Source: an uncultured Gemmatimonadaceae bacterium
GTDB lineage: Bacteria > Gemmatimonadota > Gemmatimonadetes > Gemmatimonadales > Gemmatimonadaceae
DNA length: 64,000 bases
Direction: 5' to 3'
Assembly (NCBI GenBank): GCA_966096095.1
Contig: CBHTUR010000018.1
Location: 20,271-84,270 of the forward strand
This document shows, piece by piece, positions 34,671 through 58,465 of this stretch (its first letter is position 1; every line of letters begins with the position of its first letter). The position numbers were made by a program, and so were the translations under genes. A model generated the notes under the pieces. That model saw only the letters and a list, made by a program, of their open reading frames with translations. It did no database searches and had not been told where the DNA came from.

Positions 34671-35906
34671 TCAGACTTCGGCGACGATCAAACCGGTCTG
34701 GATGGGAAATCGGGTGGCGATCTCCCGGCTCTTTCGGAATCCGGCCGACTTGAGCATCTGATGCAGCTCGCTCGCTCGGCGAGCTCGGCCTTTACCCATC
34801 GCCAGCAGATAAAAGGAGAAGTAGGCGTCGCCCACCGTTTCCGCGCCCTTTGCGCCGGCCATCGCCTCTGCAATCAGCAGTGTGCCGCCGCTCGGCAGGG
34901 CGGCTCGAACACGGTGCAAGAGACGCATGACCGACGCATCGTCGTGATCGAGCAGAACGCGAACGAGGGTGCAGACGTCAGCGCCGGCGGGAAGCGGATC
35001 CGCGTGAAAATTTCCGCCCAGACACCGAGCGCGCTCACCAAGTCCGGCGGCGTCGAGACGCTGGCGAGCGCGCGCCGCGACGGCCGGCAAGTCAAACAGT
35101 CGAAGCTCGAGGTGCGAGTGTCGTTGGCCGACCAGCGAGAGGAAGACGCCTTCTCCTCCACCGATGTCGAGCAGGCACTCGTGTCGTGAAAGGTCGTATC
35201 CGTCGAGCACCTCGGCGGCGACTGGCGGCAGGGTGGCCGCCATGATTTCCGAGTATGCGGCAACCCGCGTGTCGTCGATCGACTGCGGACGCGGCGCGTC
35301 GGCGTACGACCAGTAGCGAGATAGCTCGGTGCGATAGTCGGCACCCGTGCGCAGCAGCTCGACGGGATCGACGAGATCCTGATACGCCAGCCGATGATGG
35401 CGCACGAGCGCCAGCACGCCGGTATTGCCAACGAGCGGCGCGCCAAGCGGCCCGATGGCGAAGCGACCATAGCGGCGACGTGCCAACAATCGCAGCGACA
35501 CCGCCGCGTTCAATAACCGCTCGGTGCTCGCCGGGGAGAGTGCGGTGTGCTCCGCAATCTCTTCGATAGTACGCGCGCCAGACGCCAGGAATTCAAAGAG
35601 CTCCAGTTCGACGCAGGCCGACAGCGTCTGGGTATAGACGAAGCCGGAGACGATATCGAAGAGCGCCCGCGAACGACGCATAGTGATGGGACGCGTCAGC
35701 GGGAACTTCGCGCTCCAGCGCTGGAAGTCGTCGGTCGCGACGAGGGCATTCCAGCGGTCACGCATGCGCTCAAACCACGTTGGTGCATGCACTTGCGTCA
35801 CCGAATCGCCGGCCGGTCTGGCGATCCCTGCGGCCGGTGCGGCCGTCGACGGGGTAAATCGCGCGGAGACGCCGCGCGTGGCAAAGGCCTGCTCGGGAGG
35901 ATTCAC
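34671..35906 (-). CDS. crtF: Carotenoid (hydroxyneurosporene-type) O-methyltransferase
   Basis: [58 protein letters not shown]; sits in the crtF-bchCXYZ position. Confidence 0.85.
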
Positions 35907-35935
35907 CCGGCGAGATTACGAGTTCTCGGACAAAG

Positions 35936-35979
35936 TGTCAAGAAACAAGTACACTTTAAGTGTAAACCCTCTTGCGACA
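35936..35979. promoter_or_regulatory. PpsR box(es) in the crtF/bchI divergent promoter
   Basis: TGTCAAGAAACAAGTACA (35936-35953, TGT-N12-ACA), then 7 bp, then TGTAAA...ACA with 13-bp spacing (35961-35979). Confidence 0.68.
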
Positions 35980-36008
35980 CCTTGGGCCCGATCCTAACGT
36001 GGCCTGAC

Positions 36009-37052
36009 ATGCGACCAGTCTTTCCGTTTAGTGCAATCGTCGGCCAGGACGAGATGAAACTGGCCCTGTTGCTGGTATCGATCGACCCCACCATCGGCGG
36101 GGTGATGGTATTTGGCGACCGGGGCACCGGAAAGTCGACGGCCGTTCGCGCGCTCACCGGGCTACTACCGGCGATGAGGGTCGTGGCGGGCTGCCGTTAC
36201 GGCTGCGATCCCTCGGCAAACGGCTCTCGATGCGACGAATGTCTGGCGAAAGAAGCCAAGGGGCTTCCCGCGAAGAGCATCTCGGCGCCGGTACCGATGG
36301 TCGACCTGCCACTCGGTGCCACCGAAGATCGGCTGGTGGGGGCGTTGGATCTGGAGCGCGCGCTCAGCTCGGGAGAAAAAGTATTCGAGCCCGGACTCCT
36401 CGCGCGCGCACATCGTGGATTCCTCTACGTCGACGAAGTGAACCTGCTGGAAGATCATCTCGTCGATTTGTTGCTCGACGCCGCGGCGACCGGTGAGAAC
36501 GTCGTTGAGCGCGAGGGCGTGAGTGTTCGTCATCCTTCGCGCTTTGTGCTTGTTGGCAGTGGCAATCCCGAAGAGGGAGAACTGCGACCGCAGTTACTCG
36601 ATCGTTTCGGGCTGGCCGTTGACGTTCGCACGCCCGAGTCGATTGCGGTGCGCATTGATGTCATCAAGCGCCGCGACGCATTTGATCGTGACGCGAGCGC
36701 GTTCATGAGTCACTGGGCAAAGGCTGACGCAAAGGTGCGTCGTTCTATCGAGAAGGGACGCGCCCGCCTCGAGTCAGTGGTTGTGCCGGATGCGATACTC
36801 GAACGCGCGGCAACGTTGTGCGCGCAGCTCGGCACCGACGGACTGCGTGGTGAACTCACGTTGCTGCGCGCTTCTCGCGCGCTGGCTGCGCTCGACGGCG
36901 ATACCGACGTGACGCTCACGCATCTCAGACGCATTGCCCCATTGGCGCTTCGCCATCGGTTGCGTCGCAACGTGCTCGACGAGGCCGACGCGACCACTCG
37001 CGTCGAGCGCGCCGTGGACGACTTGTGGGGAGCGACTACGAGCTCGCCGTGA
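36009..37052 (+). CDS. bchI: Magnesium chelatase subunit I
   Basis: [64 protein letters not shown]; start ATG 36009. Confidence 0.96.
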
Positions 37053-38863
37053 ACGCGCGCACGAAGGGCGACGACACGATTCCGACGGAACGATCAGCAC
37101 TGGCGTGCGTGCTGCTCGCGGTCGATCCGACCGGCCTGGGCGGTGTGCTGCTCGATCATCCGCTGCACGATGTCGTGCGTAACCTGTCCTCGGCCATCCA
37201 ACGTCTCTTGCCAGCCGGTGCGCCGCTGCGGAGACTTCCGGTCGGTGTGAGCGCCGACCGACTTATTGGTGGAATTGATCTCGCCGCCACACTGCATCGC
37301 GGTACGCTGGTCGCCGAGCGCGGCGTCTTGTCTGCCGCCGACGGAGGTGTGGTAATCGTGCCCATGGTCGAGCGTGCGACGGTTGCCGTTCGCACCACAC
37401 TGTGCGAAGTGCTCGATAGTGGCGCCGTGCACGTAGCCCGCGAGGGAATTGCGGATCGCCACGACGCACGCGTGGTTGCGGTCCTGCAGGACGAGTCTGT
37501 CGACGACGAATTCGTACATCCCGCCCTTGTTGATCGGGTCGCCTTTCGACTGGTGCCGGACGCCGAGCACATTGCCGCGTTGCATACCACGCTCTTCGCC
37601 ACCGGTGGCGCGTCCATGGCGCCGCTGCAGTGGCGTGTGCGCGAAGCGCGCCAGCGCGTACCAATGGTCACGCTCGACGATTCATGGATTATCGCGCTGT
37701 GTAACACGGCCGCGTTGTTTGGCGTCGACTCCGTGCGGGCCACGATGTTTGCGCTGCGCTGCGCACGTGCGCACGCGTCTCTGCACGGTCGTCTGGTCGT
37801 TAACAGCGACGACGCCGAGGTCGCGGCCCAACTGGTGTTGGCGCCGCGGGCGACTCGGTTGCCGCCGCCCGTCGATGAACAAGCGCCCGACGATCAACCG
37901 TCGGAGCACTCGCCGCCGCCATCGCCAAGCGATCGACCAGCGTCGGAGCATGAAGCGGAGCCGGAGCCGCCGCGCGAGGGCGGTGAGATTCTGCGCGAGG
38001 CCGTCGCAGCCGCGCTGCCGCAGGGGTTGCTGCAGCAACTGCTCGAGCGCGCCAATATCGGATCGACATCGGGACGCGCCGGTGCCGAAGAACAGAACAT
38101 GTTGCGCGGCCGTCCACGCGGAGCGCGGAGCGGATTGCCGCGCGGAGGCGCACGGTTGCATTTGCTCGAGACCCTGCGCGCGGCGGCTCCGTGGCAGCGC
38201 GCGCGAAAGTCGGCCGCATCGCGCGCGCGCGTGACGGTGCGTCGCGAAGACTTTCGGATTCGGCGGTTTATCGAGAAGACGGGAACTACCGTGCATTTCG
38301 TGGTCGATGCATCGGGAAGCGCGGCTGTCCATCGTCTCGGTGAGGCGAAGGGCGCCGTTGAATTGCTTCTGGCCGAAAGCTACGCGAGGCGGGATCGCGT
38401 GAGCCTTCTGGCATTCCGCGGCACTGCAACGGAAATCTTGCTCCCGCCCACGCGCGCACTCGCGCGCGCCCGTCGCGTGCTGGCTGCGCTGCCCGGCGGT
38501 GGCGGAACGCCCTTGGCCGCGGCAATCGACGCGGCCGCCCAGCAGGGCATCGAGACGCGGCGCGGAGGAAGCGCGCCGTTAGTGGTGTTTCTCACCGACG
38601 CGCGGGCCAACATCGCGCGCGATGGCACACCGGGACGCGCGCGGGCGGAGCAGGACGCATTGCAGTCGGCTCGCCAGTTTGCATCGCTCAAAATTCCGGC
38701 GATGTTCGTCGACACCTCACCGCGCGGCGAGCCGCTCGCACGTCGCGTGGCCGACGCAATGCACGCGCGATACGTATTTCTGCCGACGGCCGACGCGAAA
38801 GCACTCGGGGGCCTCGTCAGGACGGCCATTCAATTGGCCGATGGCGGTGCGTCACGCCCATGA
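37049..38863 (+). CDS. bchD: Magnesium chelatase subunit D
   Basis: Degenerate AAA domain, Pro/acidic linker, TLRAAAPWQ, VWA domain (FVVDASGS, GGGTPLA, TDARANI); GTGA overlap with bchI. Confidence 0.93.
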   Translation: MNARTKGDDTIPTERSALACVLLAVDPTGLGGVLLDHPLHDVVRNLSSAIQRLLPAGAPLRRLPVGVSADRLIGGIDLAATLHRGTLVAERGVLSAADGGVVIVPMVERATVAVRTTLCEVLDSGAVHVAREGIADRHDARVVAVLQDESVDDEFVHPALVDRVAFRLVPDAEHIAALHTTLFATGGASMAPLQWRVREARQRVPMVTLDDSWIIALCNTAALFGVDSVRATMFALRCARAHASLHGRLVVNSDDAEVAAQLVLAPRATRLPPPVDEQAPDDQPSEHSPPPSPSDRPASEHEAEPEPPREGGEILREAVAAALPQGLLQQLLERANIGSTSGRAGAEEQNMLRGRPRGARSGLPRGGARLHLLETLRAAAPWQRARKSAASRARVTVRREDFRIRRFIEKTGTTVHFVVDASGSAAVHRLGEAKGAVELLLAESYARRDRVSLLAFRGTATEILLPPTRALARARRVLAALPGGGGTPLAAAIDAAAQQGIETRRGGSAPLVVFLTDARANIARDGTPGRARAEQDALQSARQFASLKIPAMFVDTSPRGEPLARRVADAMHARYVFLPTADAKALGGLVRTAIQLADGGASRP

Positions 38864-39705
38864 CAAGCGCAACACTCGCTCTGTTGCGCGCTCGTCGCGC
38901 AACCGCTGCTCACGGAGTCGATATCGCGACGCGCGAAACGGCGGCGCGTGTGTTCATGCGCTCGGTGTTCGCTGTCGTGTTTTTCTGGTGGTCGGCAACT
39001 GGCGTGATCTTCGCCCTCGAACGCGGCGCGAGCACACGCACCGGTGGATTGGTTCTCGCCACCGTGCTCGCCGTGTGGGCGGCGTGGCTGCTGTACGCCG
39101 AACGAGATGTCGAGACGCCGTCGGGCGTTCGACGCGGATTTATCGGCGCCGCATTTCTCTGGACCTGGGTGCAAGTGCTGTTTTATGGCGGATGGCTAGT
39201 CGGTCCGCCCACGCTTGCAGTGTCAATTCCGGCCGAAATCCCCTCGCTATCGCTCGCTATTCGCGCGGTGCTCGCGATGTTGTGGTATCAGTTGGCGATG
39301 TTACTGGTACTCGGCGTGGCGGCCGTACTGGTCGCGCGCCGCGCCAATCGAATTGGTTGGTGGGCGTTGCTCGTATTCTGGTGCAGTCACCAGTTAGCAA
39401 GCATCAACATCTTCCTTGGCGTCGAGAATCCCGGTCGTGGATTCTTTCCCGACGGAGTCACCTTTCTCGAATCGTATTTCGGACCTCAGCGCAACTCGTG
39501 GTTGCTGCCGCTAAGCGTGGCGATTCTGCTCATGTTTACCCTGCGTGCGGGCGTACACGCGTTGCGGGACGCCACGCCGATGCGACGGCAAACGATGATG
39601 CTGTTGATGGTACTGGGCGCACTAGGCGCGCTGGAACTGGCTGTGCTCGGCACGCCGGTGAATCTGGCGCTCTGGGACTGGTTTCTCGCCTTGCGCGGAT
39701 ACTAG
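38860..39705 (+). CDS. puhE: Putative photosynthetic complex assembly protein PuhE (DUF3623-like)
   Basis: Multi-TM protein; FFWWSATGVI, SHQLASINIFLGV, FLESYF, LGALELAVL..P....LW.W; last gene of the PGC. Confidence 0.75.
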   Translation: MTSATLALLRARRATAAHGVDIATRETAARVFMRSVFAVVFFWWSATGVIFALERGASTRTGGLVLATVLAVWAAWLLYAERDVETPSGVRRGFIGAAFLWTWVQVLFYGGWLVGPPTLAVSIPAEIPSLSLAIRAVLAMLWYQLAMLLVLGVAAVLVARRANRIGWWALLVFWCSHQLASINIFLGVENPGRGFFPDGVTFLESYFGPQRNSWLLPLSVAILLMFTLRAGVHALRDATPMRRQTMMLLMVLGALGALELAVLGTPVNLALWDWFLALRGY

Positions 39706-39716
39706 ACGAGCGCACG

Positions 39717-40967
39717 CTACTCGTAGCGCAGCGCTTCGATCGGGTCGAGGTGCGCCGCACGGCGTGCCGGAATGAGACCGAATACAATTCCGATGCTCAC
39801 TGACACCACGACTGCAATCAAGGTCAGCGTGATGGGCACGGGCGCATCCACGCTGAGCGCCATTGACGCGACGCGACCGAACGCCAGCCCGACGGCGATG
39901 CCAATCGCGCCGCCGATGCCGGTCAATGTGGCGGCCTCAATCAGAAACTGCTGCAGAATGTCACGGCGCGTTGCGCCGAGCGCTTTGCGCACACCGATTT
40001 CGCGCGTGCGACTGGTGACCGACACGGTCATGATCGCCATCACTCCGATGCCGCCCACTAGCAGCGCGACTCCGGAGAGCACAATCATCACGAGAAAGAA
40101 CACGCCGGTCATGCTGTTGAATGTGTCGAGCACCTGGTCTTGCGTGACCAGGTCAAACGTGCTGCCGTCGGCTGGATGCAACCCGCGCATTTCGCGTAGC
40201 GCCATTGTTACCGCGCCCTCGGCGTCGGCCACGCTCACTCCGGTGCGCGGCTTCACTGGAATCCACAACGCGTTCGTCCGATCGATCTGGAATTGATGAT
40301 CCATCGTGCGATAGGGTAGGACCGCACCAACCTCTTGCCCCGGCGGCGCAAAGATGTTCGCCGGCTCCACCCAGATACCGATGACCGCGCACGGGCGTCC
40401 ACCAATTCTCACCCAGCGACCAAGCGCCTGCTCGCGGCCGAACAAACGGAACGCCGTCTTCTCCTGCAACACCACCACTGCGGCGCCGGAGAGTAGTTCG
40501 TTTCGCGTGAACCAGCGTCCGCTTTGTAATTCGCCGCCCTGAATTTCCGTAAAGCGATCGTCCGCACCGAAGACAGCCAACGGCTGTGAACGAACGCCGT
40601 CGGCGTCGATACGCGCGAGCGTTTGCGCCCACAGCGCCGCATAGCCGATCTCGGGGAGTCGGCGAATGCGATCGGCTTCCTGCTCGGTCAAATCGGGACG
40701 AATTCGAACGTCCTTTGGCAGGTTGTCCGGATTGAGCGGTGTTGTCGCGAACTTCTTCATCACGTAGAACGTTGTCGGCCCAGCGACCTCGATGGTATGT
40801 ACGATCTGATCGCGAATGCCTTGCACGATCGCGGCCATGGCCATGACAGTGGCAACTCCAATGACCACGCCGAGAATCGTGAGCGACGAGCGCAGCTTGC
40901 TCACGCGCAACGCGTCGATCGCAATGCGAACGTTTTCCGTTAACGCTTCAATCGCCGGCCTCGACAT
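39717..40967 (-). CDS. MacB/FtsX-family ABC permease P8 (B-type, divergent)
   Basis: RSSLTILGVVIGV, GGIGVMAIM.VSVTSRTREIGVRKALGA, ends LDPIEALRYE. Confidence 0.92.
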   Translation of the reverse strand: MSRPAIEALTENVRIAIDALRVSKLRSSLTILGVVIGVATVMAMAAIVQGIRDQIVHTIEVAGPTTFYVMKKFATTPLNPDNLPKDVRIRPDLTEQEADRIRRLPEIGYAALWAQTLARIDADGVRSQPLAVFGADDRFTEIQGGELQSGRWFTRNELLSGAAVVVLQEKTAFRLFGREQALGRWVRIGGRPCAVIGIWVEPANIFAPPGQEVGAVLPYRTMDHQFQIDRTNALWIPVKPRTGVSVADAEGAVTMALREMRGLHPADGSTFDLVTQDQVLDTFNSMTGVFFLVMIVLSGVALLVGGIGVMAIMTVSVTSRTREIGVRKALGATRRDILQQFLIEAATLTGIGGAIGIAVGLAFGRVASMALSVDAPVPITLTLIAVVVSVSIGIVFGLIPARRAAHLDPIEALRYE

Positions 40968-42212
40968 TCAGGTCTCGGCGCGCATGGCGGTGATCGGATC
41001 GAGCTTCGCCGCGCGCGACGCGGGATACACTCCAAAGAGAACGCCGATACCCGCACCAAGGCCGAGCGCGAGCGCGACGGACCACATCGTCACGCGCGCG
41101 GGAAGCGGCGACACCGTCGAGATGAGCAGGGCGAGCGACCATCCGGCCCCCACTCCAAGCAGTCCGCCAAGGGCGGCGAGTGCAACCGATTCGGCAAGGA
41201 ACTGTCGACGTACGTCGGCCGACGTCGCCCCGACAGCTTTACGCAGGCCGATCTCGTGCGTGCGTTCGGTGACGGCCATGAGCATGATGTTCATGATGAC
41301 GATGCCGCCCACGAGGATGCCGATGGCGACGACCGCTGGCACCACGGCAAAGAGCACGCGGGTGAGCTGCTTCCAGAAATCGACTAACGCATCGGCGGTA
41401 CCGACATCGAAGTTGTTGGGATCGCCCGGACGGAGACCACGGGCAATGCGCATAGCTTCTTCGGCACGCGCCATTGCGGGTGCAACCGCAGCGGCATCGT
41501 TCACCTTCACGGAAATCGTCGTCGCCTGACGCCGACCGTACAGCGCTTCGAACGCGGTGATCGGCATAAGCGCGAAGCCGTCGAACGACTGGCCCAACAC
41601 ACGTCCTTTGCGGGCGACAACGCCGATGATGGTGAAGCGTTGTCCCATTAAACGCACTTCCTGTTCGATCGGACTTACCCCGTCAAACAGCTTCGAGGCT
41701 ACATCGGCGCCAACCACAATCACATTGCGTCGTTCGCGAACTTCGACGTCGCTCAGCGGTCGGCCTGCGGTGAACTTGTAGTCCTGAACGATCTGGTACC
41801 CGGCAGTCACGCCGAACACCAGCACATCGCCGAGCGTGCGATTGCGCCAGACCATATCGGCCTGCGGTGTGGGCCAGCCTGACTGCAGGCTGATCGCTAC
41901 CGCATCGGGCAAGGCGTTTCGCACGGCTTCGGCGTCTTGCTCGTTGACGCGCGGCCGACGCTGCAGCGAGCGGAATTCATCGTCGTTGAAGAGTCCCAGA
42001 CTGATCGGAAGCCGGCGAACCTGAAACGTGTTCATACCGATCATCGCGTCGGCGATGTTCTCTTTGACGTACGCGTTCATGCCTTGAATGATGGCAACGA
42101 CCGCGACCAGAAAGCCGACCGATACAACAATGCCGAGCAACGTGAACGCCGTCCGCAGCGGATTGGTGCGCAACTGCAGCACGCTCAGACGAATCACGTC
42201 GATGAAACGCAT
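40968..42212 (-). CDS. MacB/FtsX-family ABC permease P7 (A-type, divergent)
   Basis: RTAFTLLGI, GGIVIMNIMLMAVTERTHEIGLRKAVGA, ends LDPITAMRAET. Confidence 0.92.
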   Translation of the reverse strand: MRFIDVIRLSVLQLRTNPLRTAFTLLGIVVSVGFLVAVVAIIQGMNAYVKENIADAMIGMNTFQVRRLPISLGLFNDDEFRSLQRRPRVNEQDAEAVRNALPDAVAISLQSGWPTPQADMVWRNRTLGDVLVFGVTAGYQIVQDYKFTAGRPLSDVEVRERRNVIVVGADVASKLFDGVSPIEQEVRLMGQRFTIIGVVARKGRVLGQSFDGFALMPITAFEALYGRRQATTISVKVNDAAAVAPAMARAEEAMRIARGLRPGDPNNFDVGTADALVDFWKQLTRVLFAVVPAVVAIGILVGGIVIMNIMLMAVTERTHEIGLRKAVGATSADVRRQFLAESVALAALGGLLGVGAGWSLALLISTVSPLPARVTMWSVALALGLGAGIGVLFGVYPASRAAKLDPITAMRAET

Positions 42213-42218
42213 AGACTC

Positions 42219-43475
42219 CTACTCGTACCGCAGCGCTTCGACCGGATCGAGATTGGACGCGCGAATCGCCGGGAGCATACCGAATGCCACGCCGGTGAGT
42301 GCGCTCGCACCGAGAGCCGTGATCACGATACTGGCCGGCAGGGCAGCCGGAATACTGGTGTTCGCGCGAATCACCCAAGCCAGCAGCGCGCCGATACCGA
42401 GGCCGATCATTGCGCCGATTGAAGTCAGTGTGGCGGCTTCGACCAGGAACTGCCAGCGAATCGTACCCGCCGTTGCGCCCAGCGCTTTCCGCACGCCGAT
42501 CTCACGAGTGCGCTCGGTGACGGAGATCATCATGATGGCCACCACGCCCACGCCGCCAACGAGCAGCGCAACAGCCGACAGCGCCAAGCCGACGGCAAAG
42601 ATCGCGCTGAACAACTGGTTGAAGGTGTCCATGATGCGGTCCTGCGTGACCAGATAAAACGTTGGCCGCATGCCCGGCTTGAGGCCGCGACGTGCCCGCA
42701 TTGCTGCCATGACTTCGTCCATGACTTCGCTCTGGGCGCCAGTCGCGAATGGACGGACCATCAGGGTGAGGCCGCCCTTCCATACGTCGAGCGTGCGAAT
42801 CGCGGTCTGCAGCGGAATGATCGCGCGCGGCGTGTCCGGCCCTTTTCCTTCGAGCGACTTGAGAAAACCGGCCTTCGGTTGGTAGACGCCAATCACGTGA
42901 AACTGATTGCCGTTGATCATGATGTCCTTGCCGATTGGCTCGGACTCACCGAAGAGCTGCGTTTTCAGGGTGTCGTTAATCAGAACCACCGGTGCGCCGG
43001 CGTCGTGCTCGGATTTGGTGAAGTTGCGTCCGGGCTGAATGTCCGACGCATCGACCTCTGGCCACTCCGTGCTGTACGCATCGTAGCCGACGTTGTCGAC
43101 CCGGCTGTTCTTGTAGGCGAAATTTCCGCTGCCCCCAAGCACGCCAATGGAGGATGCCACACCGGGAAGTCGCTTGATCATTTCCCATTCGTCAAACGAA
43201 ATGGGCGGATTGCGACGGTCGGGACATTTCTCGTCGGTGCCGTCGCACGAGCTCAGATCGGGACTGCGTCGCTGCACGATGAACGTCGTCGCGCCGATCT
43301 CCTCAAGATCCTGCTGAAACGACTGTCGGATACCGTTGACCACGGAGCCCATCGCCACCACGACAAAGACGCCGATCGCGACGCCGGCAATGGTCAACGC
43401 GGCACGCACTTTGTTGGTGCGTATGGCCTCGACCGCCATGCCGATGCCTTCAAACACGAGTAGTAGTCGGTTCAC
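42219..43475 (-). CDS. MacB/FtsX-family ABC permease P6 (B-type)
   Basis: NKVRAALTI.GVAIGVFVVV, CDGTDEKC, GGVGVVAIMMISVTERTREIG, ends LDPVEALRYE; GTG 43475. Confidence 0.92.
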   Translation of the reverse strand: MNRLLLVFEGIGMAVEAIRTNKVRAALTIAGVAIGVFVVVAMGSVVNGIRQSFQQDLEEIGATTFIVQRRSPDLSSCDGTDEKCPDRRNPPISFDEWEMIKRLPGVASSIGVLGGSGNFAYKNSRVDNVGYDAYSTEWPEVDASDIQPGRNFTKSEHDAGAPVVLINDTLKTQLFGESEPIGKDIMINGNQFHVIGVYQPKAGFLKSLEGKGPDTPRAIIPLQTAIRTLDVWKGGLTLMVRPFATGAQSEVMDEVMAAMRARRGLKPGMRPTFYLVTQDRIMDTFNQLFSAIFAVGLALSAVALLVGGVGVVAIMMISVTERTREIGVRKALGATAGTIRWQFLVEAATLTSIGAMIGLGIGALLAWVIRANTSIPAALPASIVITALGASALTGVAFGMLPAIRASNLDPVEALRYE

Positions 43476-43479
43476 GCGG

Positions 43480-44721
43480 TTACTCCTGGCGCAGGGCGGC
43501 GATGGGGTCGAGCTGCGAAGCGCGACTGGCCGGATACATCCCGGCGGCGATGCCCACCGTTGCCCCGGTGACGAGGGCTGCTGCAATCGACCATGGCGCC
43601 ACAGCGGCCGGCAGCGGCGTGAGCGTGGAGATCAGTTTCGCCAACGCGATTCCCAAGGTGATGCCGATGGCCGCACCGAGCGTACTGAGTGTCGCGGCTT
43701 CGACGAGAAACTGTGAGAGAATGTCTGAGCGCCTGGCGCCAAGAGCTTTTCGCACGCCGATTTCGCGGGTGCGTTCTGCGACCGCCACGAGCATGATGTT
43801 CATGATGACCATCGCGCCGACAACCAGGCTGATGGCTGGCAGCGCGGTGCCGAACAACACGAGTCGGCCTTTGAGCTGATTGATGAAGCCGAAGGCGGCA
43901 TCCTGAGTGATCAGTCCGAAGTTGTCCGGCTCGCCCGCCTTCAGTCCGCGAAGGGAGCGAAGCGCCGAACGTGCTGCCTCCATTCCTTCTGCCAGATCTT
44001 GCTGCCGCGGCGCTTGCACGATGAGCGAAGACACATCGCGTTGCGGGCGAATAATGCGCCCCATCGGCGAGGAATACGGCGCGATTGCCAGTCGGTCGAG
44101 CGAAAAACCAAAGACAGATCCTTGCTTTTCGATCACGCCGATGACGGTGAACGGCACGCCGGCAACACGAAGCTGGCGTCCTTCCGGATTCAGGCCCGGA
44201 AAGAAATGCTCCGCGACTTCAACACCGATTACCAGGACCGGTGAACCCGCGCGCACTTCCTGGTCGGTGAACGCGCGTCCTTGTGTGACGGCGAATTTCT
44301 TGATTTCGAAGTAGTTCGCATCGGTGGCCACCGACTGAACCTGACGCGGGCGAGCACCGGCGGCAGATGCGTACTTAAACGACTCGCTGGCGATGCTCGA
44401 CTTCATCGTGGCCGGAAGCGCCGCCCGAACGGCTTCAACGTCGGTCATTCGCAAGAGCGGTCGCCGGGCGGCCGCCCGCGCATCGAAGCCGCGATTGCCG
44501 CCTGGTCCGACGTTGTCAAAGCGGCGCAGCGTGAACGTGTTGGCACCAATCAGTCGCGCGGCGAAATCCTCTTCGACGTAGCGACTCATGCCTTCAACGA
44601 TCGAGACGACGGCGATCAGGAACATCACGCCGATCATCACGCCGAGGAGCGTAAAGAAGCTCTTTAGCTTCTGAACACGGAGCTGCGACAGGGCAAGGCC
44701 GAATGCATCACGGGTATTCAC
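43480..44721 (-). CDS. MacB/FtsX-family ABC permease P5 (A-type)
   Basis: RVQKLKSFFTLLGV, GAMVIMNIMLVAVAERTREIG, ends LDPIAALRQE. Confidence 0.92.
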   Translation of the reverse strand: MNTRDAFGLALSQLRVQKLKSFFTLLGVMIGVMFLIAVVSIVEGMSRYVEEDFAARLIGANTFTLRRFDNVGPGGNRGFDARAAARRPLLRMTDVEAVRAALPATMKSSIASESFKYASAAGARPRQVQSVATDANYFEIKKFAVTQGRAFTDQEVRAGSPVLVIGVEVAEHFFPGLNPEGRQLRVAGVPFTVIGVIEKQGSVFGFSLDRLAIAPYSSPMGRIIRPQRDVSSLIVQAPRQQDLAEGMEAARSALRSLRGLKAGEPDNFGLITQDAAFGFINQLKGRLVLFGTALPAISLVVGAMVIMNIMLVAVAERTREIGVRKALGARRSDILSQFLVEAATLSTLGAAIGITLGIALAKLISTLTPLPAAVAPWSIAAALVTGATVGIAAGMYPASRASQLDPIAALRQE

Positions 44722-44743
44722 CCTGCAAAGTTAACGCCCGGTC

Positions 44744-46009
44744 TTATTCGTGCCGTAGGGCTTCTACCGGATCCAGACGCGAGGCGCGCAGGGCGGGGAG
44801 CATGCCGAACACCACACCGGTCCCGATGCTCGCGATGAGGGCGGTCAGCACGGCAGACCCAGGTATCGAGGTGGGCACGGGTGTGTTGACGCGCACGACC
44901 CAGGCCAAAATCGCCCCGACGATCAGCCCAACGGACGCGCCAATGCTCGTCAGTGTGGCCGCCTCCACCAGGAACTGCCAGAGAATCGTGCCTCGCGTGG
45001 CGCCCAGCGCTTTGCGGACGCCGATTTCTCGGGTGCGCTCCGTTACCGAGATCATCATGATGGCCACGACGCCCACGCCGCCAACCATCAGCGCGACGGC
45101 CGACAGGGCGAGGCCGACCATGAAAATTGCGCCGAAGAGCTGGTCGAAAGTTTGAATCATGCGGTCGGACGCGACAAGCGCGAAGTTATTCGGCGCGCCT
45201 GGCTTGAGGCCGCGGCGGCCACGCAGGAGCTCCGTGACCGCATCCATCACTTCCGACTGCGGCACGCCATCGCGCGGCTTGGTCATGATCATCAGGCCGC
45301 GTCGCCAGACGTCGAGATGGCGATAGGCCGTCATCATTGGCAAAATGGCCCGTGGCTTATCCGGTCCGCGGCCGTCGAGCGTCTTCAGGAATCCGGCCTT
45401 GGTGTGGAAGACGCCGATCACGCTGAACTGCTTGCCCTCGATATCGATTTGCTTGCCGATCGGATCGGAATCGCCAAAGAGTCGCGCCTTCAGCGTGTCG
45501 TTGATGACGGCAACTTGCGCTCCGGCGTCGTGTTCTGACTGCGAAAAGCTGCGGCCCGGCGAAATGTCCGCGACGTCGGTCTTGATCCAGTCCGTGCTTT
45601 GCGCGTCGTAGCCGACGTTCTTCACATGCCGGTCTTTGTAGTCGAAGTCGGCCTGGCCGGACAACCACGCGGTCGCCGTTTCGACCGCCGGCAAGCGGCG
45701 AATCGAGGCCCATTCGTCGAGTGTAATCGCCGGATTCTTGCGGTCGGGGCAGGTGTCGTCGGTACCATCGCATGAGTTGAAGCCTACGCCGCGGCGTCGC
45801 ACCTGAAATGCGGTGGCTCCGAACTCGTCGAGATCAGACTGAAAACTGCGTTTGATGCCGTGCACTGTCGCGCCCATCGCGACCACGACGAACACGCCGA
45901 TGGCGACGCCGCCAATGGTGAGCAGCGCGCGTACCTTGTTGGCGCGCATGGCATCGACGGCCATCCCAATACCTTCGAGCGCCATCGCGAGCCGATCGAC
46001 GAGTCGCAT
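44744..46009 (-). CDS. MacB/FtsX-family ABC permease P4 (B-type)
   Basis: NKVRALLTIGGVAIGVFVVV, CDGTDDTC, ends LDPVEALRHE; ATG 46009. Confidence 0.92.
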   Translation of the reverse strand: MRLVDRLAMALEGIGMAVDAMRANKVRALLTIGGVAIGVFVVVAMGATVHGIKRSFQSDLDEFGATAFQVRRRGVGFNSCDGTDDTCPDRKNPAITLDEWASIRRLPAVETATAWLSGQADFDYKDRHVKNVGYDAQSTDWIKTDVADISPGRSFSQSEHDAGAQVAVINDTLKARLFGDSDPIGKQIDIEGKQFSVIGVFHTKAGFLKTLDGRGPDKPRAILPMMTAYRHLDVWRRGLMIMTKPRDGVPQSEVMDAVTELLRGRRGLKPGAPNNFALVASDRMIQTFDQLFGAIFMVGLALSAVALMVGGVGVVAIMMISVTERTREIGVRKALGATRGTILWQFLVEAATLTSIGASVGLIVGAILAWVVRVNTPVPTSIPGSAVLTALIASIGTGVVFGMLPALRASRLDPVEALRHE

Positions 46010-46013
46010 CGAG

Positions 46014-47249
46014 CTACTCCTGCCGCAGCGCGGCGATGGGATCCAAGCGCGCCGCGCGGCTGGCGGGATAGATACCGGCCGCGATACCAACGCCCGCGCC
46101 AACTACGAGCGCCGCGAGAATTGACCATGGTGCGACAGCCGCTGGTAGCGGCGTCGTTGCCGCGATGATCGCGGCGAGCGCGATGCCGAGGCCAATGCCG
46201 ACGGCGGCGCCAACCACGCTGAGCGTGGCCGACTCGACCAGGAACTGCGACATGATATCGCGGCGTCGCGCGCCCAAGGCCTTACGCACGCCGATTTCCG
46301 CCGTGCGTTCTGCCACGGCCACCAGCATGATGTTCATGATGACCATCGCGCCAACCACCAGTCCGATTGCCGGCAGCGCCGTACCAAACAGCACCATCTT
46401 GGACTTGAGCCCGGCGAAGAACGACATCGCTTCGTCTTGCGTTTCGAGCGCAAAGTTGTCGGGCCGACCGGGAGGAAGTTTGCGGTTGGCGCGCAGCACT
46501 TCCCGCGCCGCGTCCATGCCGTCGACCACCAGATCGGCCGTCGGCGCCTGCACGATCATGCTCTCGATGTCGCCCCTCGGTCGAATGACGCGGAGCAGGG
46601 GACTGGTGTACGGCGCGATGGCCAGCCGATCAAGCGAAAACCCAAATACCGTACCCTGCTTTTCAATGATGCCGATGACTTCGTAGGGCACTCCTCCAAT
46701 GCGCAACTCGCGACCGATCGGATCGAGCCCTTTGAAGAAGTGCGACGCGACCTCCACGCCGATCACGATGACACGTGAGCCGGCGTTCACTTCCTGAGGC
46801 CCGAACGCTCGCCCGCGCTCAAGATTGAACTTCTTAATCGTGAAGTACGAGGCTTCGGTGGCCACCGCCTGCACTTGACGCGGCCGATTGAACGGCGAGT
46901 TCGCGTTGACAAACGTCTCGCTCGTGATGGCGGACTGCGATCCGGGCGGGAGCGCCGTGCGCACCAGTTCGGCGTCGACCGGATAAAGCCGCGGACGGCG
47001 CATGATTTCGCGCCAGTCGAGATTGTCGTCGGTGTTGAAGTCGTTCCACCGACGTAGCGTAAACGTGTTCACGCCAAACAGTTTTCCGGCAAAATCGTTC
47101 TCGACGTAGCGGCTCATGCCTTCGACAATCGACACAACCGCGATGAGAAACATGACGCCGATGGTGACGCCGATGAGCGTAAAGAAGCTTTTAAGCTTCT
47201 GCACGCGCAGGGTGTTCAACGCCAGCCGGACCGCCTCGTAAAGGGGCAT
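46014..47249 (-). CDS. MacB/FtsX-family ABC permease P3 (A-type)
   Basis: RVQKLKSFFTLIGV, ends LDPIAALRQE; ATG 47249 overlaps the P2 stop (TAATG). Confidence 0.92.
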   Translation of the reverse strand: MPLYEAVRLALNTLRVQKLKSFFTLIGVTIGVMFLIAVVSIVEGMSRYVENDFAGKLFGVNTFTLRRWNDFNTDDNLDWREIMRRPRLYPVDAELVRTALPPGSQSAITSETFVNANSPFNRPRQVQAVATEASYFTIKKFNLERGRAFGPQEVNAGSRVIVIGVEVASHFFKGLDPIGRELRIGGVPYEVIGIIEKQGTVFGFSLDRLAIAPYTSPLLRVIRPRGDIESMIVQAPTADLVVDGMDAAREVLRANRKLPPGRPDNFALETQDEAMSFFAGLKSKMVLFGTALPAIGLVVGAMVIMNIMLVAVAERTAEIGVRKALGARRRDIMSQFLVESATLSVVGAAVGIGLGIALAAIIAATTPLPAAVAPWSILAALVVGAGVGIAAGIYPASRAARLDPIAALRQE

Positions 47250-48502
47250 TACTCGTACCTCAGGGCTTCGACAGGATCGAGTCGCGCCGCACGCGACGCC
47301 GGAAGCAATCCAAACAGAATGCCGGTGACCGCACTCGCGCCGAGCGCCACGACAACGGCGGTGGGCGGTATGCTCGCCTCGATCGGCGAGAACGAGCGAA
47401 TCGCGAGTGCCGCGAGCCACCCGATAAAGAGCCCGATCGCTCCACCGATGCCGGTGAGCGTTGCGGCCTCAACGAGAAACTGCCAGAGAATCGTTGCGCG
47501 TGTGGCGCCGAGCGCTTTGCGCACGCCAATCTCTCGGGTGCGCTCCGTAACGGAGATCATCATGATGGCGACTACGCCAACGCCGCCGACGATGAGACCC
47601 ACGCCGGAAAGCGCGATCATCACGAGGAAGAACATGCCGAAGACTTTGTTGTACGTCTCGAACAGTTTGTCTTGCGTAATGATCGCAAACGACGACTCTT
47701 CGCCGGGGCGCAATCCGCGCTGACCGCGCATTGTTGCCGTCACGTCGTCGAGCACTTGATCGCGCGTGTATTCCGCGCGCGGCTTCACAGCCAGCGCTAT
47801 GCCGCCGGGGCGCGCACCGAGGTAGCGCGTGAGCGCCTGCACGGGAACGACCGCTTTCGGACGCTCGCCGCCGCTCAGAAAACTGGCGTTGTCCTTGTAT
47901 ACGCCTATGACTTCGAAGGGCACGCCATTGAACGTGACCGTTTTGCCGATCGGATCGAGTTCACCGAGCAGGCGCTCCGCCATGAGCGTTGACAAGACGG
48001 CGACACGGGCACCTGTGCGCGCTTCGGCCGCGGTGAAGGCCCGTCCTGGAAACACGTCGGGCGCGCTGATGGACGGCCATTCTGCCGAGTAGCCTTCGAG
48101 CGGCGCCGCCGAGAGTGAGCGATCACGGAATTTCGCGGCCACGTTCCAATCGAGCCGCTCGCCAACGAACTCCACGCTGCTCAGGCGGCGTAGCGCATCG
48201 ATTTCGCTTGGTCGGATGGGCGGATTGCGCAGCCACACGCAGGTGCCGTCGGATCCGTCGCAGTTCTCAAACGAAATGGGATAGCGCACAACGAAGAACG
48301 TGTTGGGGCCCGTGGCCGCAAAGTCCCGCGCAACGCTCTGGTTGATACCGTGAATGGCGGCCGAGATGGCGACGACCACGAATACGCCCACGGCGATGCC
48401 AAGAATCGTGAGGCCAGCGCGCACTTTGTTTGAGCGGCAGGCGTCGATGGCAATACGAACCCCTTCCGCGATATTCGAGAGCCGTAAGGAAAGTTGACTC
48501 AT
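47249..48502 (-). CDS. MacB/FtsX-family ABC permease P2 (B-type)
   Basis: NKVRAGLTILGIAVGVFVVV, CDGSDGTC, ends LDPVEALRYE. Confidence 0.92.
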   Translation of the reverse strand: MSQLSLRLSNIAEGVRIAIDACRSNKVRAGLTILGIAVGVFVVVAISAAIHGINQSVARDFAATGPNTFFVVRYPISFENCDGSDGTCVWLRNPPIRPSEIDALRRLSSVEFVGERLDWNVAAKFRDRSLSAAPLEGYSAEWPSISAPDVFPGRAFTAAEARTGARVAVLSTLMAERLLGELDPIGKTVTFNGVPFEVIGVYKDNASFLSGGERPKAVVPVQALTRYLGARPGGIALAVKPRAEYTRDQVLDDVTATMRGQRGLRPGEESSFAIITQDKLFETYNKVFGMFFLVMIALSGVGLIVGGVGVVAIMMISVTERTREIGVRKALGATRATILWQFLVEAATLTGIGGAIGLFIGWLAALAIRSFSPIEASIPPTAVVVALGASAVTGILFGLLPASRAARLDPVEALRYE

Positions 48503-48505
48503 CGT

Positions 48506-49753
48506 CTATTCCTGTCGCAGCGCGGCGATCGGATCGAGTCGCGACGCACGACTGGCGGGATATACGCCCGAGATGATGCCCACCCCCGCCCCGAGGCCGA
48601 CGCCGACAATGATCGACCATGGCGCGACGCTTGCTGGCAGTGGCGTGGTGGCGGAAATGATTTTCGCCAACGCGATGCCGAGCGCGACACCAATCGCGGA
48701 ACCGACGGTGCCGAGCGTTGACGCTTCGATCAGGAATTGCGAGAGGATATCGAACCGACGCGCGCCAAGCGCTTTGCGAATGCCGATCTCGCGCGTGCGT
48801 TCGGCGACAGCAACGAGCATGATGTTCATGATGACGATCGCGCCCACCACGAGTCCAATGGCGGGCAGGGCAATGCCAGCCAGCACGAGGTAGCGCTTGA
48901 TCTTGTTCCAGAATTCCAGCGCCGAGTCGGCTGTCTGCAACGCGAAATCATCTTTCTGACCCGGACGCAACCGATGGACGCCGCGCATGGTCGCGCGCAC
49001 GATCTCCATTGTTTCCTTCATCGCCGGATCGGAGGGCGCTTGAATCGCGATGGCATCGACAATGTTCGGTCGCGAGTTCAGCAGACGGCGCGCAGGCGAC
49101 CGCCACGACGTGACCATGAAATTGTCGAACGAGATGCCGAAGGCTTTGCCCTGCGATTCTGCGATGCCGACGATCTTGTACGGCACGCCGCCCATCTTCA
49201 CGTCACGACCGATCGGATCGAGCCCGGGATAGAGCCGCTCGGCGGCGTCGGGACCGATAACGACCGACTTCTCGCCGCGCGCGAGCTCCTGTTCTGACAG
49301 TGCGCGACCGCTGCTGACACCGAGTTTCTTCACGTTGAAGTAGTCGCCGTCGACAGCGAATACCTGCACGCGGCGCGGTTTCGCGCTCACGGTTGAAGTG
49401 ACGGGCACCTGATCTTCGCTGATCAGGTACCAACGCACGTCGCCGGGCAGGTCGTGCACGACTGGCGCGACATCGGAAATTTCGAGGCGCGGACGCCGAC
49501 GGTATTCTTCCCAGGTCGCGTCATCCACGTCGCCGATGTTGATGTTCGGACGACTGCGAAGTTCGAAGGTGTTCACGCCGATCAGCTTGCCCACCAGGTC
49601 GTCCTGCATGTAGCGACCCATCCCTTCGACGATCGACACGACCGAGATCAGGAACATGACGCCAATGCAGACGCCCAAGAGCGTGAAGGCGCTCTTGAGC
49701 TTTTGGACGCGAATGGTGTTGAGAGCGAGGCGAATCGCTTCGAACAGTTGCAT
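48506..49753 (-). CDS. MacB/FtsX-family ABC permease P1 (A-type)
   Basis: RVQKLKSAFTLLGV, GAIVIMNIMLVAVAERTREIG, ends LDPIAALRQE. Confidence 0.92.
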   Translation of the reverse strand: MQLFEAIRLALNTIRVQKLKSAFTLLGVCIGVMFLISVVSIVEGMGRYMQDDLVGKLIGVNTFELRSRPNINIGDVDDATWEEYRRRPRLEISDVAPVVHDLPGDVRWYLISEDQVPVTSTVSAKPRRVQVFAVDGDYFNVKKLGVSSGRALSEQELARGEKSVVIGPDAAERLYPGLDPIGRDVKMGGVPYKIVGIAESQGKAFGISFDNFMVTSWRSPARRLLNSRPNIVDAIAIQAPSDPAMKETMEIVRATMRGVHRLRPGQKDDFALQTADSALEFWNKIKRYLVLAGIALPAIGLVVGAIVIMNIMLVAVAERTREIGIRKALGARRFDILSQFLIEASTLGTVGSAIGVALGIALAKIISATTPLPASVAPWSIIVGVGLGAGVGIISGVYPASRASRLDPIAALRQE

Positions 49754-49772
49754 CGGGGGCGCCTCTAACGCG

Positions 49773-49806
49773 GAAGGGGAACGTACCAGACGGTACGTTC
49801 CCCTTC
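49773..49806 (-). other. Perfect 15-bp intercistronic hairpin between the ATPase gene and the permease array
   Basis: GAAGGGGAACGTACC-agac-GGTACGTTCCCCTTC; no U-tract follows on the minus strand. Confidence 0.8.
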
Positions 49807-49843
49807 GCGAAGAGTTTCGCGGATCGCTCGCCGGGCGCGCGGT

Positions 49844-53553: not shown

Positions 53554-54297
53554 TTAGCGCGGTACATCATCCCGCGTGGCGACATAGCCGCGCGCGGGGA
53601 TTGTGATGCGTAACAGTCGGCCTTCTGAGTCCGCCCAGATGAGCCGGGTTTCGTTGGCATCAGTCAGCAAATGCCAGCGTCGTGCAGCTCGTCTCGCGCC
53701 GGCCAAATCAACGGTATCGGCGACGCTCTCCAACACGACGCGAACCGCTCCTTGTCGATTGGCAATTGGCGTCAGCGATGGCACCCGGATGGTATCGCCG
53801 ATTGCGGGCAGCGGTCGTCGTACCACGAGGGCGTACTGCAGGATGCCGTCTTCCTCAATGACCAGCGCCCCCGGGGCGAGCAGGTATTCGCGCGCCGCCT
53901 CGCCGGTGGTGCTTCTCGATAGGGTCTGAAACCGGCCCCGAACGCGCTGGCCACCCAACCGGAGCGAGAATGCCGCGCCGGTGCGCTCTTCCACTGAATA
54001 CCGGACGGGCGTGCCCGCCGAGTCGGTGTCGAGGCGCACGGCGCTGCGCCGCTCGCCCAAGGCCGACTCCGCGCGTAGTTCGAAAGCCTCGCCATCGGCG
54101 CCGACCAGGCGCTGCAACGAGAACTGCTCCCGGCCGACCCGCGCGCCGTTGATGGCAATAGTGAAGCTGCCGACGTCGAGGCGCGCTGGTGGCGGTGGTT
54201 GCAAGACCATCGTCAGCGTACACGCGAGCGCCGCACCCGATGCGCGCGCGCGGTTCAAGACCGCAAGGCGGCCATGAGTGGGGCGGGTCCAGAACAT
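53554..54297 (-). CDS. Hypothetical beta-rich, probably exported protein
   Basis: Coherent ORF upstream of tolC with alternating polar/apolar strands (GSFTIAINGARVGREQF...RLIWADSEGRLLRITIP); start uncertain (54297 or 54210). Confidence 0.6.
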   Translation of the reverse strand: MFWTRPTHGRLAVLNRARASGAALACTLTMVLQPPPPARLDVGSFTIAINGARVGREQFSLQRLVGADGEAFELRAESALGERRSAVRLDTDSAGTPVRYSVEERTGAAFSLRLGGQRVRGRFQTLSRSTTGEAAREYLLAPGALVIEEDGILQYALVVRRPLPAIGDTIRVPSLTPIANRQGAVRVVLESVADTVDLAGARRAARRWHLLTDANETRLIWADSEGRLLRITIPARGYVATRDDVPR

Positions 54298-57300: not shown

Positions 57301-58465
57301 ACGCTCACTGGCCCGGCCGGTTGGCGCACTGCGCGAAGCTGCGCTGAGCATCGCCGCGGGACGCGACGCCACGGCACTCGGCAGCGCTCCCGCGACGGAG
57401 TTCGCGCCAGTCTATCGCGCATTCGGTCGCATGTCGGAGGATTTGACGACCAGCCGCGCGGCTCTCGAGGCGGCCCAACGGCGCACCGCAGCCGTGCTAC
57501 AGCACGTGGCCAGCGGTGTGGTGGCGTTTGATCGAGACGGCGCGGTAACGATTGCCAATCCGCGCGCGGAAGAAATCCTCGCTGCCTCACTGCCGCCTGG
57601 AACGGCCTCACTTGATTCGCTGCCCGCCGAGTGCGCACCGATCGTGGTACGTTGCCGCACGTTCTTGGCGCACGACAACGATGAAGACGCATTCGATCAC
57701 CAATGGCGCGGGCGACAGCTGCGAGGCCGTCTGACCAGACTGCCAGGTGGCGCGGTTCTCACGCTCGATGACGTGACCGAGCTGGCGTCCGCGCAGCGCG
57801 TGCTGGCGTGGGGTGAGATGGCGCGTCAGGTCGCGCATGAGATCAAAAATCCGCTCACACCGATTCGCCTGGGTGTTCAGCATTTGCGTCGTGCCTATCG
57901 CGACGGGCGTCCGGAATTCGGCGATATCCTCGACACGAACGTGACCCGCGTCCTCTCGGAGATTGATCGACTGGACGAAATCGCGCGCGCCTTCAGCCGC
58001 TACGGAACAGCTCCCGATCAACGCGCACCGGCCGTGCAGGTCGATGTGCGCGCGGTCGCGCACGATGTGCTTGAACTCGAGCGTCTCGGCGAAAGCGGAG
58101 TTCAGTGGCAGTTCGACGCGCCGGACGATACCGAGAGCGTGTTCGCACTGGGGCAACGTGACGAACTCAAAGAGGTGCTGCTCAACCTGCTTGAGAACGC
58201 CCGACTTGCACACTCTCACGTGGTGCGCGTGTCGGTGCTCCGCGACGGAGAGACTGCGGTGATCGAAGTGCGGGACGACGGGCAGGGGATTGCACCCGAT
58301 GTGTTGCCGCACGTCTTTGAACCGCACTTCTCGACTCGTACCAGCGGCAGTGGTTTGGGGCTCGCCATCAGCCGGCGTCTGATTGAGGGTTGGGGCGGGC
58401 GCATTACGCTCGAAAGCGTGCCGGGTGCGGGAACGTGCGTTCGCGTGAGCCTGAAGATCGGTTAA
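54365..58465 (+). CDS. Very large multi-TM sensor histidine kinase (NtrY-like HAMP-PAS-HisKA-HATPase)
   Basis: AWGEMARQVAHEIKNPLTPI, NLLENA, DDGQGI, FEPHFSTR, GSGLGL. Confidence 0.92.
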   Translation: MTELPAGWTPAQTDERLPRSTRWPVLWVASASMALLAMAAWQRRPGWVALAFVAAGTLGSVATNRSIRAPRWIATGASVLLAMALTLAVGDTRTLDTVTRDWREWSSAEREARATRVAASLTSTASALTAAAQRIAQDTALLSTLGAGVLDATTEASTATAVLSPPLAGRTESAILVFRGSALMARAGQLRTTVAARGQPGIRLVDEPFYSSLEARAISPNGADQVVTVALIAARPPADHFARALIESTGRTDLSSTIVESPDSSRVEEGTTVIVVPDGPRRLARVRALARTDGEAQLELLQRARARTAVPVVLAALLVLAVSWRRPARTVHRMAVTLVLLLAVAVAPLSALSNVSPLFDASSYYVRMAGPLTANVAALLLTAALGLAMLFLILRSGRVVRITSAKALASLMVIVSATLGPFVLRDLSRGIALPADGVSIELWIAWQLAIALAGASVLHVGAAAGQTILGGRRGLPGVAAPSMAIVAALLAPNLWQSPGGWPGWYPVLWALAILALAFTRRGVALVTGAAIIAGTGAVTLTWGATVRARMSLAQHDLARLSAVDENAYRLLERFALTIAGDPRGVAQSDGLLRRFAASELAQAGYPTRMARWDSLPAPTPMSELRLAPLTDSIGAQSVIASMARESGAVEIRAVEDGPTTVLIAAIPAPDHTVTTVAVPPRTRLLPSDPFALLTGLAGTRGGEPPYRLTLSAATPLDSTSRPLVWRRRGDTMHGDGVASGGLESRLIHVEVDLRSLDVLAPRGALLVLLDVAVVLVLWGTSAMADGAFGRWLRVRRARLARSYRVRLSAALLASFLAPAAVFAGWSWYRLQDDDRASRELLVREALRTAASDVARRDLATTASSVGSPLFLYRSGQLLTASDTLLSSLAPLGRLLPLTNDESDFASDDVFATRRVPVGNSQALVGFRRVAAIAEGLVVVTPARGDEFALDERRADLGVLLLFTASLGALAAFWLSGVAARSLARPVGALREAALSIAAGRDATALGSAPATEFAPVYRAFGRMSEDLTTSRAALEAAQRRTAAVLQHVASGVVAFDRDGAVTIANPRAEEILAASLPPGTASLDSLPAECAPIVVRCRTFLAHDNDEDAFDHQWRGRQLRGRLTRLPGGAVLTLDDVTELASAQRVLAWGEMARQVAHEIKNPLTPIRLGVQHLRRAYRDGRPEFGDILDTNVTRVLSEIDRLDEIARAFSRYGTAPDQRAPAVQVDVRAVAHDVLELERLGESGVQWQFDAPDDTESVFALGQRDELKEVLLNLLENARLAHSHVVRVSVLRDGETAVIEVRDDGQGIAPDVLPHVFEPHFSTRTSGSGLGLAISRRLIEGWGGRITLESVPGAGTCVRVSLKIG

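Follow-up and report, generated by a model that had tools for sequence, protein, structure and literature searches.

Four ancient A-B pairs of MacB-family permeases in a Gemmatimonadaceae efflux operon, probably acting as heterodimers on one shared chassis

Pumps of the MacB type export antibiotics, peptides, siderophores and glycolipids, and they have so far been understood as homodimers. Reviews of the superfamily describe forms in which two permease units are fused, YbbP and BceB, and give LolCE as the sole heterodimer built from separate units (PMC5985334, PMC8277102). Neither duct-forming heteropairs nor arrays of several permease pairs were found in the literature on heterodimeric or multi-permease MacB-type pumps and on Gemmatimonas MacB. 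Here, we analysed a stretch of 64,000 nucleotides (the window) from an uncultured Gemmatimonadaceae bacterium (assembly GCA_966096095.1, contig CBHTUR010000018.1, positions 20,271 to 84,270). It carries on its minus strand a tightly packed operon encoding a TolC-like duct, a MacA-like adaptor and one ATPase of the LolD/MacB type, followed by eight contiguous permease genes at positions 39717–49753 of the window (Table 1). Numbered P1 to P8 in order of transcription, the permeases alternate strictly between two classes, A for the odd and B for the even genes. Our analyses suggest that this is probably a tripartite efflux operon of the MacAB-TolC type (ATP-binding cassette, or ABC, type VII) with a multiplied membrane part, in which four ancient A-B modules would act as heterodimers sharing one chassis.

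A preliminary description of this DNA had reported eight minus-strand open reading frames (ORFs) here, with A-gene starts at 49753, 47249, 44721 and 42212 and a period of about 2.5 kb. These positions proved exact, successive A genes being spaced by 2504, 2528 and 2509 nt, and all the N- and C-terminal motifs quoted for P1–P8 were found in the translations. Identity is 39–69% within class A, 37–66% within class B and 30–35% between the classes, and the order of relatedness by pairwise identity is the same in both. The closest paralogs are P3 and P5 (69%) and P4 and P6 (66%), P1 (about 54%) and P2 (about 49%) stand at an intermediate distance from their class mates, and P7 (about 40%) and P8 (about 39%) are the most divergent members of A and B, respectively. 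By chance, four A and four B genes would alternate strictly in a single array with a probability of 1/70.

Phylogenetic analysis with IQ-TREE of 104 sequences (49 A and 50 B), rooted on five single-copy paralogs from the same genome, recovered A and B as reciprocally monophyletic, with Shimodaira–Hasegawa-like approximate likelihood ratio test (SH-aLRT) values of 98 and 99. The branching order is shared by both clades, with P7|P8 deepest, followed by the pairs of other families, P1|P2 and then P3|P4 together with P5|P6. The mirroring extends to every major node, relatives included, and an extra duplication in one relative (L020) is likewise repeated in the A and B clades. The same-genome single-copy paralogs fall outside both clades, as do cyanobacterial DevC-type genes, which form an outgroup clade in the wider tree described below. 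The split and the mirrored clades bear out the earlier proposals that odd and even genes would separate in a tree and that the duplicated unit was a gene pair. P7–P8, which had been singled out as the most diverged pair, is in fact the oldest, its clade being common to a second family of the order.

The same organisation was found in the related arrays from the same genus and order, all of which (20 of 20) consist of duct, adaptor and ATPase genes followed by a strict (A-B)n series, with n from 1 to 4. Across these arrays, orthologous pairs are either there or missing as units: P3P4 is missing in L002–L005 and L008 and P5P6 in L006, while L007 and L018 contain only P1P2 and P7P8, L017 contains P1P2 and P5P6, and L019 contains P5P6 and P7P8. 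A wider scan with the A-class alignment, restricted to one genome per species, returned 80 loci from Gemmatimonadota, Acidobacteriota, Eisenbacteria, Myxococcota, Chlorobiota/Bacteroidota, Cyanobacteria and others. In a tree of 191 sequences (78 in the A clade, 75 in the B clade and 38 others), A and B again formed reciprocal clades that mirror each other. These clades include pairs from Acidobacteriota and some from Eisenbacteria, and pairs were duplicated independently in Acidobacteriota (L061 and L073). Beyond the 20 arrays, the A-then-B order was kept, in one to four pairs, at about 60 further loci of Gemmatimonadota, Acidobacteriota and Eisenbacteria, apart from one lone A gene described below. 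An odd position is occupied by 64 of 66 A-clade genes and an even position by 60 of 63 B-clade genes, and all five seeming exceptions can be traced to truncated contigs or to a scaffold gap of 100 N that hides an A gene. No array with unequal numbers of A and B genes was seen among the 20 related arrays and the scanned A/B-clade loci. The A/B split is shown to be older than the separation of Gemmatimonadota and Acidobacteriota, and later duplications and losses are shown to have involved whole A-B pairs every time. Judged from this phylogenetic pattern, the pairing of A and B is ancient, and duplication has repeatedly acted on the pair as a unit. Two classes kept in conserved pairs argue against a homodimer of a single permease species.

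The alignment of both classes contains 35 positions that are at least 90% conserved with the same residue in A and B. Between the second and third transmembrane helices (TMH2 and TMH3), the coupling-helix motif ERTxEIGxRKAxGA is conserved equally well, to at least 90%, in the A (78), B (75) and other (38) sequences and aligns with Escherichia coli MacB. Because this motif is conserved in A and B, both classes should be able to dock an ATPase. A single position is invariant within each class but differs between the two. It lies in the TMH2 motif VGGIGVMN, where all 78 class A sequences have Val307, while Gly is present in 75 of 75 class B sequences, 38 of 38 others and E. coli MacB. In MacB, TMH1 and TMH2 of both monomers make up the four-helix bundle of the dimer (PMC5985334). 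A change that enforces heterodimers would be expected to put a bulky residue into just one of the partners, and we hypothesize that the Val of class A is of this kind.

Apart from these clades, mirrored pairs of two permeases were also observed as a second, distinct family in Myxococcota, Chlorobiota, Bacteroidota, KSB1 and others (L049, L052, L063, L080, L081, L085, L092, L094, L095 and L098). In this second family, the first Gly of the TMH2 motif is often replaced by Ala in one partner (8 of 12). Pairs resembling P7P8 can also stand detached from an array: in L034, such a pair is convergent to a duct-adaptor-ATPase-A-B-A-B operon, and in L027 it has no ATPase within 10 kb. In L009 (4292–5750), the P1 ortholog is split into two overlapping ORFs next to an intact P2, reflecting either a frameshift error in a fragmented metagenome-assembled genome or the loss of one pair member.

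All eight permeases match PF12704 (MacB_PCD; 1e-32 to 1e-39) and PF02687 (FtsX; 1e-21 to 1e-24) and have no ATPase domain. The features of MacB type VII ABC permeases were all found, namely these domains, a four-transmembrane topology with about 200 aa of periplasmic domain (Porter/Sabre) inserted after TMH1 and before TMH2, the coupling helix and an accompanying MacA-type adaptor and TolC-type duct. Scores against models of narrower families remained below their cut-offs: 150–192 bits for the fused-MacB equivalog NF007826 (cut-off 966 bits; model positions ~251–648 only), 28–58 bits for the lolCE equivalog TIGR02212 (362 bits; C-terminal region only), 94–155 bits for the ADOP model TIGR03434 (622 bits; second half of the model only) and 18–25 bits for the DevC equivalog TIGR01185 (290 bits).

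Since the stop of P7 is directly followed in frame by the start of P8, a P7-TGA(W)-P8 read-through chain could be folded with AlphaFold2, using an alignment of 39 paired read-through rows. The model has a mean predicted local distance difference test (pLDDT) score of 77, and each half is folded well. Both halves show the topology of MacB: TMH1 and TMH2, each of them long, enclose a mixed alpha/beta domain and are followed by a short coupling helix and then by TMH3 and TMH4. The top Foldseek E-values were obtained with MacB chains and the fused two-unit permease YbbP, which aligns with the whole model (TM-score 0.55). The predicted structure confirms the MacB fold and is compatible with a MacB-type pseudo-dimer, rather than proof of one. 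The pairs had previously been described as LolC/LolE-like, which holds for their organisation but not for fold or sequence: both classes align from end to end with the membrane and periplasmic part of MacB chains (1e-41 to 1e-45), whereas the match to LolC is limited to the C-terminal FtsX domain (1e-6 to 1e-9). On these homologies, the permeases belong to the MacB and not to the Lol family, and LolCE is an organisational analogy only.

The ratio of non-synonymous to synonymous substitution rates (dN/dS) of the eight permeases against their orthologs in L001 and L003 ranges from 0.05 to 0.18, similar to the adaptor and the duct. This range shows purifying selection on all eight genes, and all of them look functional. 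Divergence among paralogs is unevenly distributed, with 50–79% identity in TM2–TM4 and 24–38% (older pairs) or 58–60% (youngest pairs) in the periplasmic domain. Between orthologs, the periplasmic domain is 77–88% identical, and this combination of low paralog and high ortholog identity indicates that each pair has its own conserved periplasmic head. At the DNA level, the 2.5-kb units are 51–66% identical, and neither recent gene conversion nor long DNA repeats were found between them; with a longest exact match of 29 nt, the copies are old and have been kept individually. What stands out in this locus is a phylum-spanning pairing of two permease classes in which the pair has been multiplied repeatedly behind a single ATPase, adaptor and duct, with divergence focused on the periplasmic head.

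The periplasmic domains of P2, P4 and P6 also contain a CxxxxxxC motif (CDGxDxxC), at approximate positions, estimated from protein positions, of 48230–48260, 45740–45770 and 43210–43240, respectively; P8 does not have it. Within class B, only the P2/P4/P6 clade has the motif: it occurs in 12 of the 75 B sequences and is absent from all 116 A and other sequences.

In the mechanism that we propose, each A would join the B encoded next to it in a heterodimer that makes up the transmembrane half of the pump, as is the case for LolC and LolE, and two copies of the single ATPase would dock onto whichever A-B pair is assembled, with the adaptor and the duct common to all four pairs. The four pairs would thereby supply four different periplasmic substrate-handling heads. 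The A-specific change from Gly to Val in the TMH2 GGxG motif may make A-A dimers unfavourable and in this way enforce the pairing of A with B, while unequal recombination between like genes would make the arrays grow and shrink, necessarily in pair units.

Several observations weigh against A-B heterodimers. All duct-forming MacB homologs characterised so far are homodimers (PMC5985334), and the putative placement of Val307 at the dimer interface is deduced from the literature description of TMH2. The predicted template modelling score (pTM) of the P7–P8 read-through model is only 0.51, and how the two halves sit relative to each other is thus predicted without confidence. One genuine lone A gene was found (L045:2579–3799, on an Acidobacteriaceae contig), with no B within 4.6 kb downstream. 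A natural A-B fusion was not found in the loci examined, where long ORFs are high-GC read-ins from upstream. Rate covariation of cognate partners (A_i, B_i) showed no excess over that of non-cognate ones (B_i, A_i+1), the residual correlations being all weakly negative in an underpowered set of 7–10 genomes, and this comparison is not counted as evidence. Moreover, unequal crossing-over among the A genes or among the B genes would mechanically produce gain and loss in pairs as well, which is therefore weaker evidence of co-function than it seems.

Part of this evidence would suit eight independent homodimers (A2 or B2) with a shared ATPase, in which the alternation is only the trace of an old A/B tandem duplication spread in 2.5-kb units by unequal crossing-over. 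Such an arrangement would follow the precedent of the characterised homologs, agrees with the retention of every shared motif by both classes, coupling helix included, and suits the AlphaFold2 model, in which the two halves were not docked with confidence; unit-wise recombination would account for pair-wise gain and loss without selection. We nevertheless consider it unlikely, given that the A-then-B order is kept across about 150 genes of several phyla, where intact loci yielded a single lone A and not one lone B, an adjacency that would be hard to maintain over these distances if either gene worked alone. In addition, a Gly of the TMH2 bundle motif that is universal elsewhere has been lost from class A, and the true single-copy relatives form clades of their own. 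The obligate heterodimer of the preliminary description is not supported in the form given there; it is a reasonable inference from the A-B adjacency across phyla and the A-specific TMH2 change, and the low pTM stands on the other side.

A promiscuous pool, in which any A could combine with any B to give up to 16 dimers as a combinatorial generator of specificity, is a purely speculative extension made in the preliminary description and seems slightly less probable again. The membrane interface may indeed fail to discriminate among the three younger pairs, the transmembrane regions being 72–82% identical among P1, P3 and P5 and 53–77% among P2, P4 and P6. However, P7 and P8 differ from the other pairs in all regions, and the older paralogs are least alike in their periplasmic domains, which likewise come into contact in the MacB dimer when ATP is bound. 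Mirrored trees place each A beside the same B lineage since each duplication, and together with the absence of arrays with unequal A and B numbers they favour a preference for cognate pairing. Finally, redundant or decaying paralogs without distinct roles, forming a gene-dosage array, would fit relatives that do well on one to three pairs and the split P1 ortholog of L009, but this is very improbable in view of the low dN/dS of all eight genes, the distinct and conserved periplasmic domain of each paralog and the age of the individually kept copies.

For the Acidobacteriota A-B loci with at least 3 kb upstream and at least 1.5 kb downstream (L041–L070), no ABC ATPase gene was present in 15 of 20, which argues that an ATPase supplied in trans is normal for this permease family. 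More tentatively than for the locus itself, we suggest that Gemmatimonadota, Acidobacteriota and neighbouring phyla may possess modular type VII pumps, with a fixed chassis (ATPase dimer, adaptor hexamer and duct), alternative heterodimeric A-B modules that each bring their own periplasmic specificity head, and heteropairing enforced by the asymmetry in TMH2 (Val in A, Gly in B). If so, this modularity would explain many orphan permease pairs and ADOP genes without an ATPase. If heterodimers on a shared chassis are confirmed, it would become testable how a type VII ABC motor serves alternative membrane modules and how substrate range widens without duplication of the whole pump, and the numerous orphan permease genes of soil bacteria would gain candidate partners. 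The Gly/Val asymmetry in TMH2 offers a concrete, mutable handle on what enforces heteropairing.

Regarding the remainder of the operon, the ATPase listed in Table 1 is the only one adjoining the eight permeases, and its best NCBIfam matches are the nucleotide-binding domain (NBD) of MacB (4.8e-78) and LolD (3.6e-68). The adaptor scores 158 bits with TIGR01730 (RND_mfp model), above the cut-off, and 2e-43 with the MacA model. The operon probably starts with an ORF of about 247 aa, since its C-terminal ~210 aa are kept directly upstream of the duct gene in relatives (30–68% identity), a conservation that reaches another family of the order. From P1 to P8, the intergenic gaps measure, in order, 3, -1, 4, 22, 4, 6 and 0 nt, and this close spacing suggests coupled translation of the permease genes. 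The gap between the ATPase and P1 is 90 nt here and 0–90 nt in relatives, only some of which have the hairpin found in it; not being conserved among relatives, the hairpin was ruled out as part of a general mechanism.

Table 1. Features of the permease array and its operon, in order of transcription (positions in the window)
Feature	Position	Strand	Remarks
ORF of ~247 aa, hydrophobic N-terminus	53554..54297	-	No Pfam family; start at 54297 inferred
TolC-like outer-membrane factor, OEP family, 513 aa	51952..53493	-	PF02321 1.7e-54; syntenic in relatives
MacA-like periplasmic adaptor (membrane fusion protein), 430 aa	50647..51939	-	HlyD_D23, HlyD_3, Biotin_lipoyl_2
ABC ATPase (MacB-NBD / LolD type), 268 aa	49844..50650	-	ABC_tran 4.7e-34
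Strong hairpin in ATPase-P1 gap	49769..49809	-	Gap fold -49.3 kcal/mol
P1, class A, 415 aa, pair 1	48506..49753	-	MacB_PCD + FtsX; A clade; dN/dS 0.10
P2, class B, 417 aa, pair 1	47249..48502	-	MacB_PCD + FtsX; periplasmic CxxxxxxC motif
P3, class A, 411 aa, pair 2	46014..47249	-	ATG overlaps P2 stop by 1 nt
P4, class B, 421 aa, pair 2	44744..46009	-	MacB_PCD + FtsX; B clade
P5, class A, 413 aa, pair 3	43480..44721	-	GTG start
P6, class B, 418 aa, pair 3	42219..43475	-	GTG start 4 nt past P5 stop
P7, class A, 414 aa, pair 4	40968..42212	-	Orthologs in another family of the order
P8, class B, 416 aa, pair 4	39717..40967	-	ATG directly after P7 TGA, in frame

Divergent from the operon lies a gene for a HAMP/HisKA/HATPase sensor kinase of 1366 aa (54365–58465, plus strand), a candidate regulator that is syntenic with the operon in L001–L007, L010, L011, L014, L015, L026, L030 and L035. 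On the other side, bchI, bchD and a DUF3623 (PuhE-like) gene (35547–39705, plus strand) converge on P8 with a gap of 11 nt and form the edge of a photosynthesis gene cluster. Photosynthesis genes are also adjacent in L002, L004, L005, L008, L017 and L019, but not in L001, L003 and L007; as the array also occurs in relatives without that adjacency, a functional tie was rejected and the arrangement was judged to be mere neighbourhood.

Compared with described systems, the locus has the duct, the adaptor and the MacB-type ATPase in common with MacAB-TolC of E. coli, Acinetobacter baumannii and Aggregatibacter actinomycetemcomitans (PDB 5NIK, 5GKO and 5LIL), and both permease classes share its four-transmembrane topology, its coupling-helix motif and the TMH2 motif GGxGxMN. 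It differs from MacB, a homodimer, in that the ATPase is a separate polypeptide, that the permeases fall into two classes and that four pairs replace a single gene; in class A, moreover, Val takes the place of the second Gly of the motif. Separate ATPase and permease genes together with an adaptor, as here, are found in Spr0693–0695 of Streptococcus pneumoniae (PDB 5XU1, matched by the permeases at 1e-30 to 1e-41), YknXYZ of Bacillus and the cyanobacterial DevBCA, but these have a single permease gene forming a homodimer.

Two paralogous permease genes with one separate ATPase gene are likewise the arrangement of LolCDE, in which a LolC/LolE heterodimer works with LolD2, although that system lacks the adaptor and the duct that this array has. 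Because LolCE falls in a different clade, heteropairing in the A/B split has originated independently. In E. coli YbbAP (PDB 9GE6/9GE7) and the ADOP family, two diverged permease units served by a separate ATPase make up a pseudo-heterodimer, the two MacB-type units being fused in one chain and not encoded by separate genes as here. ADOP proteins (TIGR03434), with their two fused permease units, measure about 800 aa, and their genes have no adjacent ATPase, like many A-B pairs of Acidobacteriota. YbbP contains two additional linking helices, and its partner is TesA rather than an adaptor and a duct (PMC12646458).

A further likeness, to importers with unrelated folds, is functional only. In group II energy-coupling factor (ECF) transporters and with the MsiK/MsmK ATPases of sugar importers, one ATPase module serves several alternative specificity components in the membrane. 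If the modular chassis suggested above is real, the A-B pumps would be the exporter counterpart to the shared-module logic of the ECF importers.

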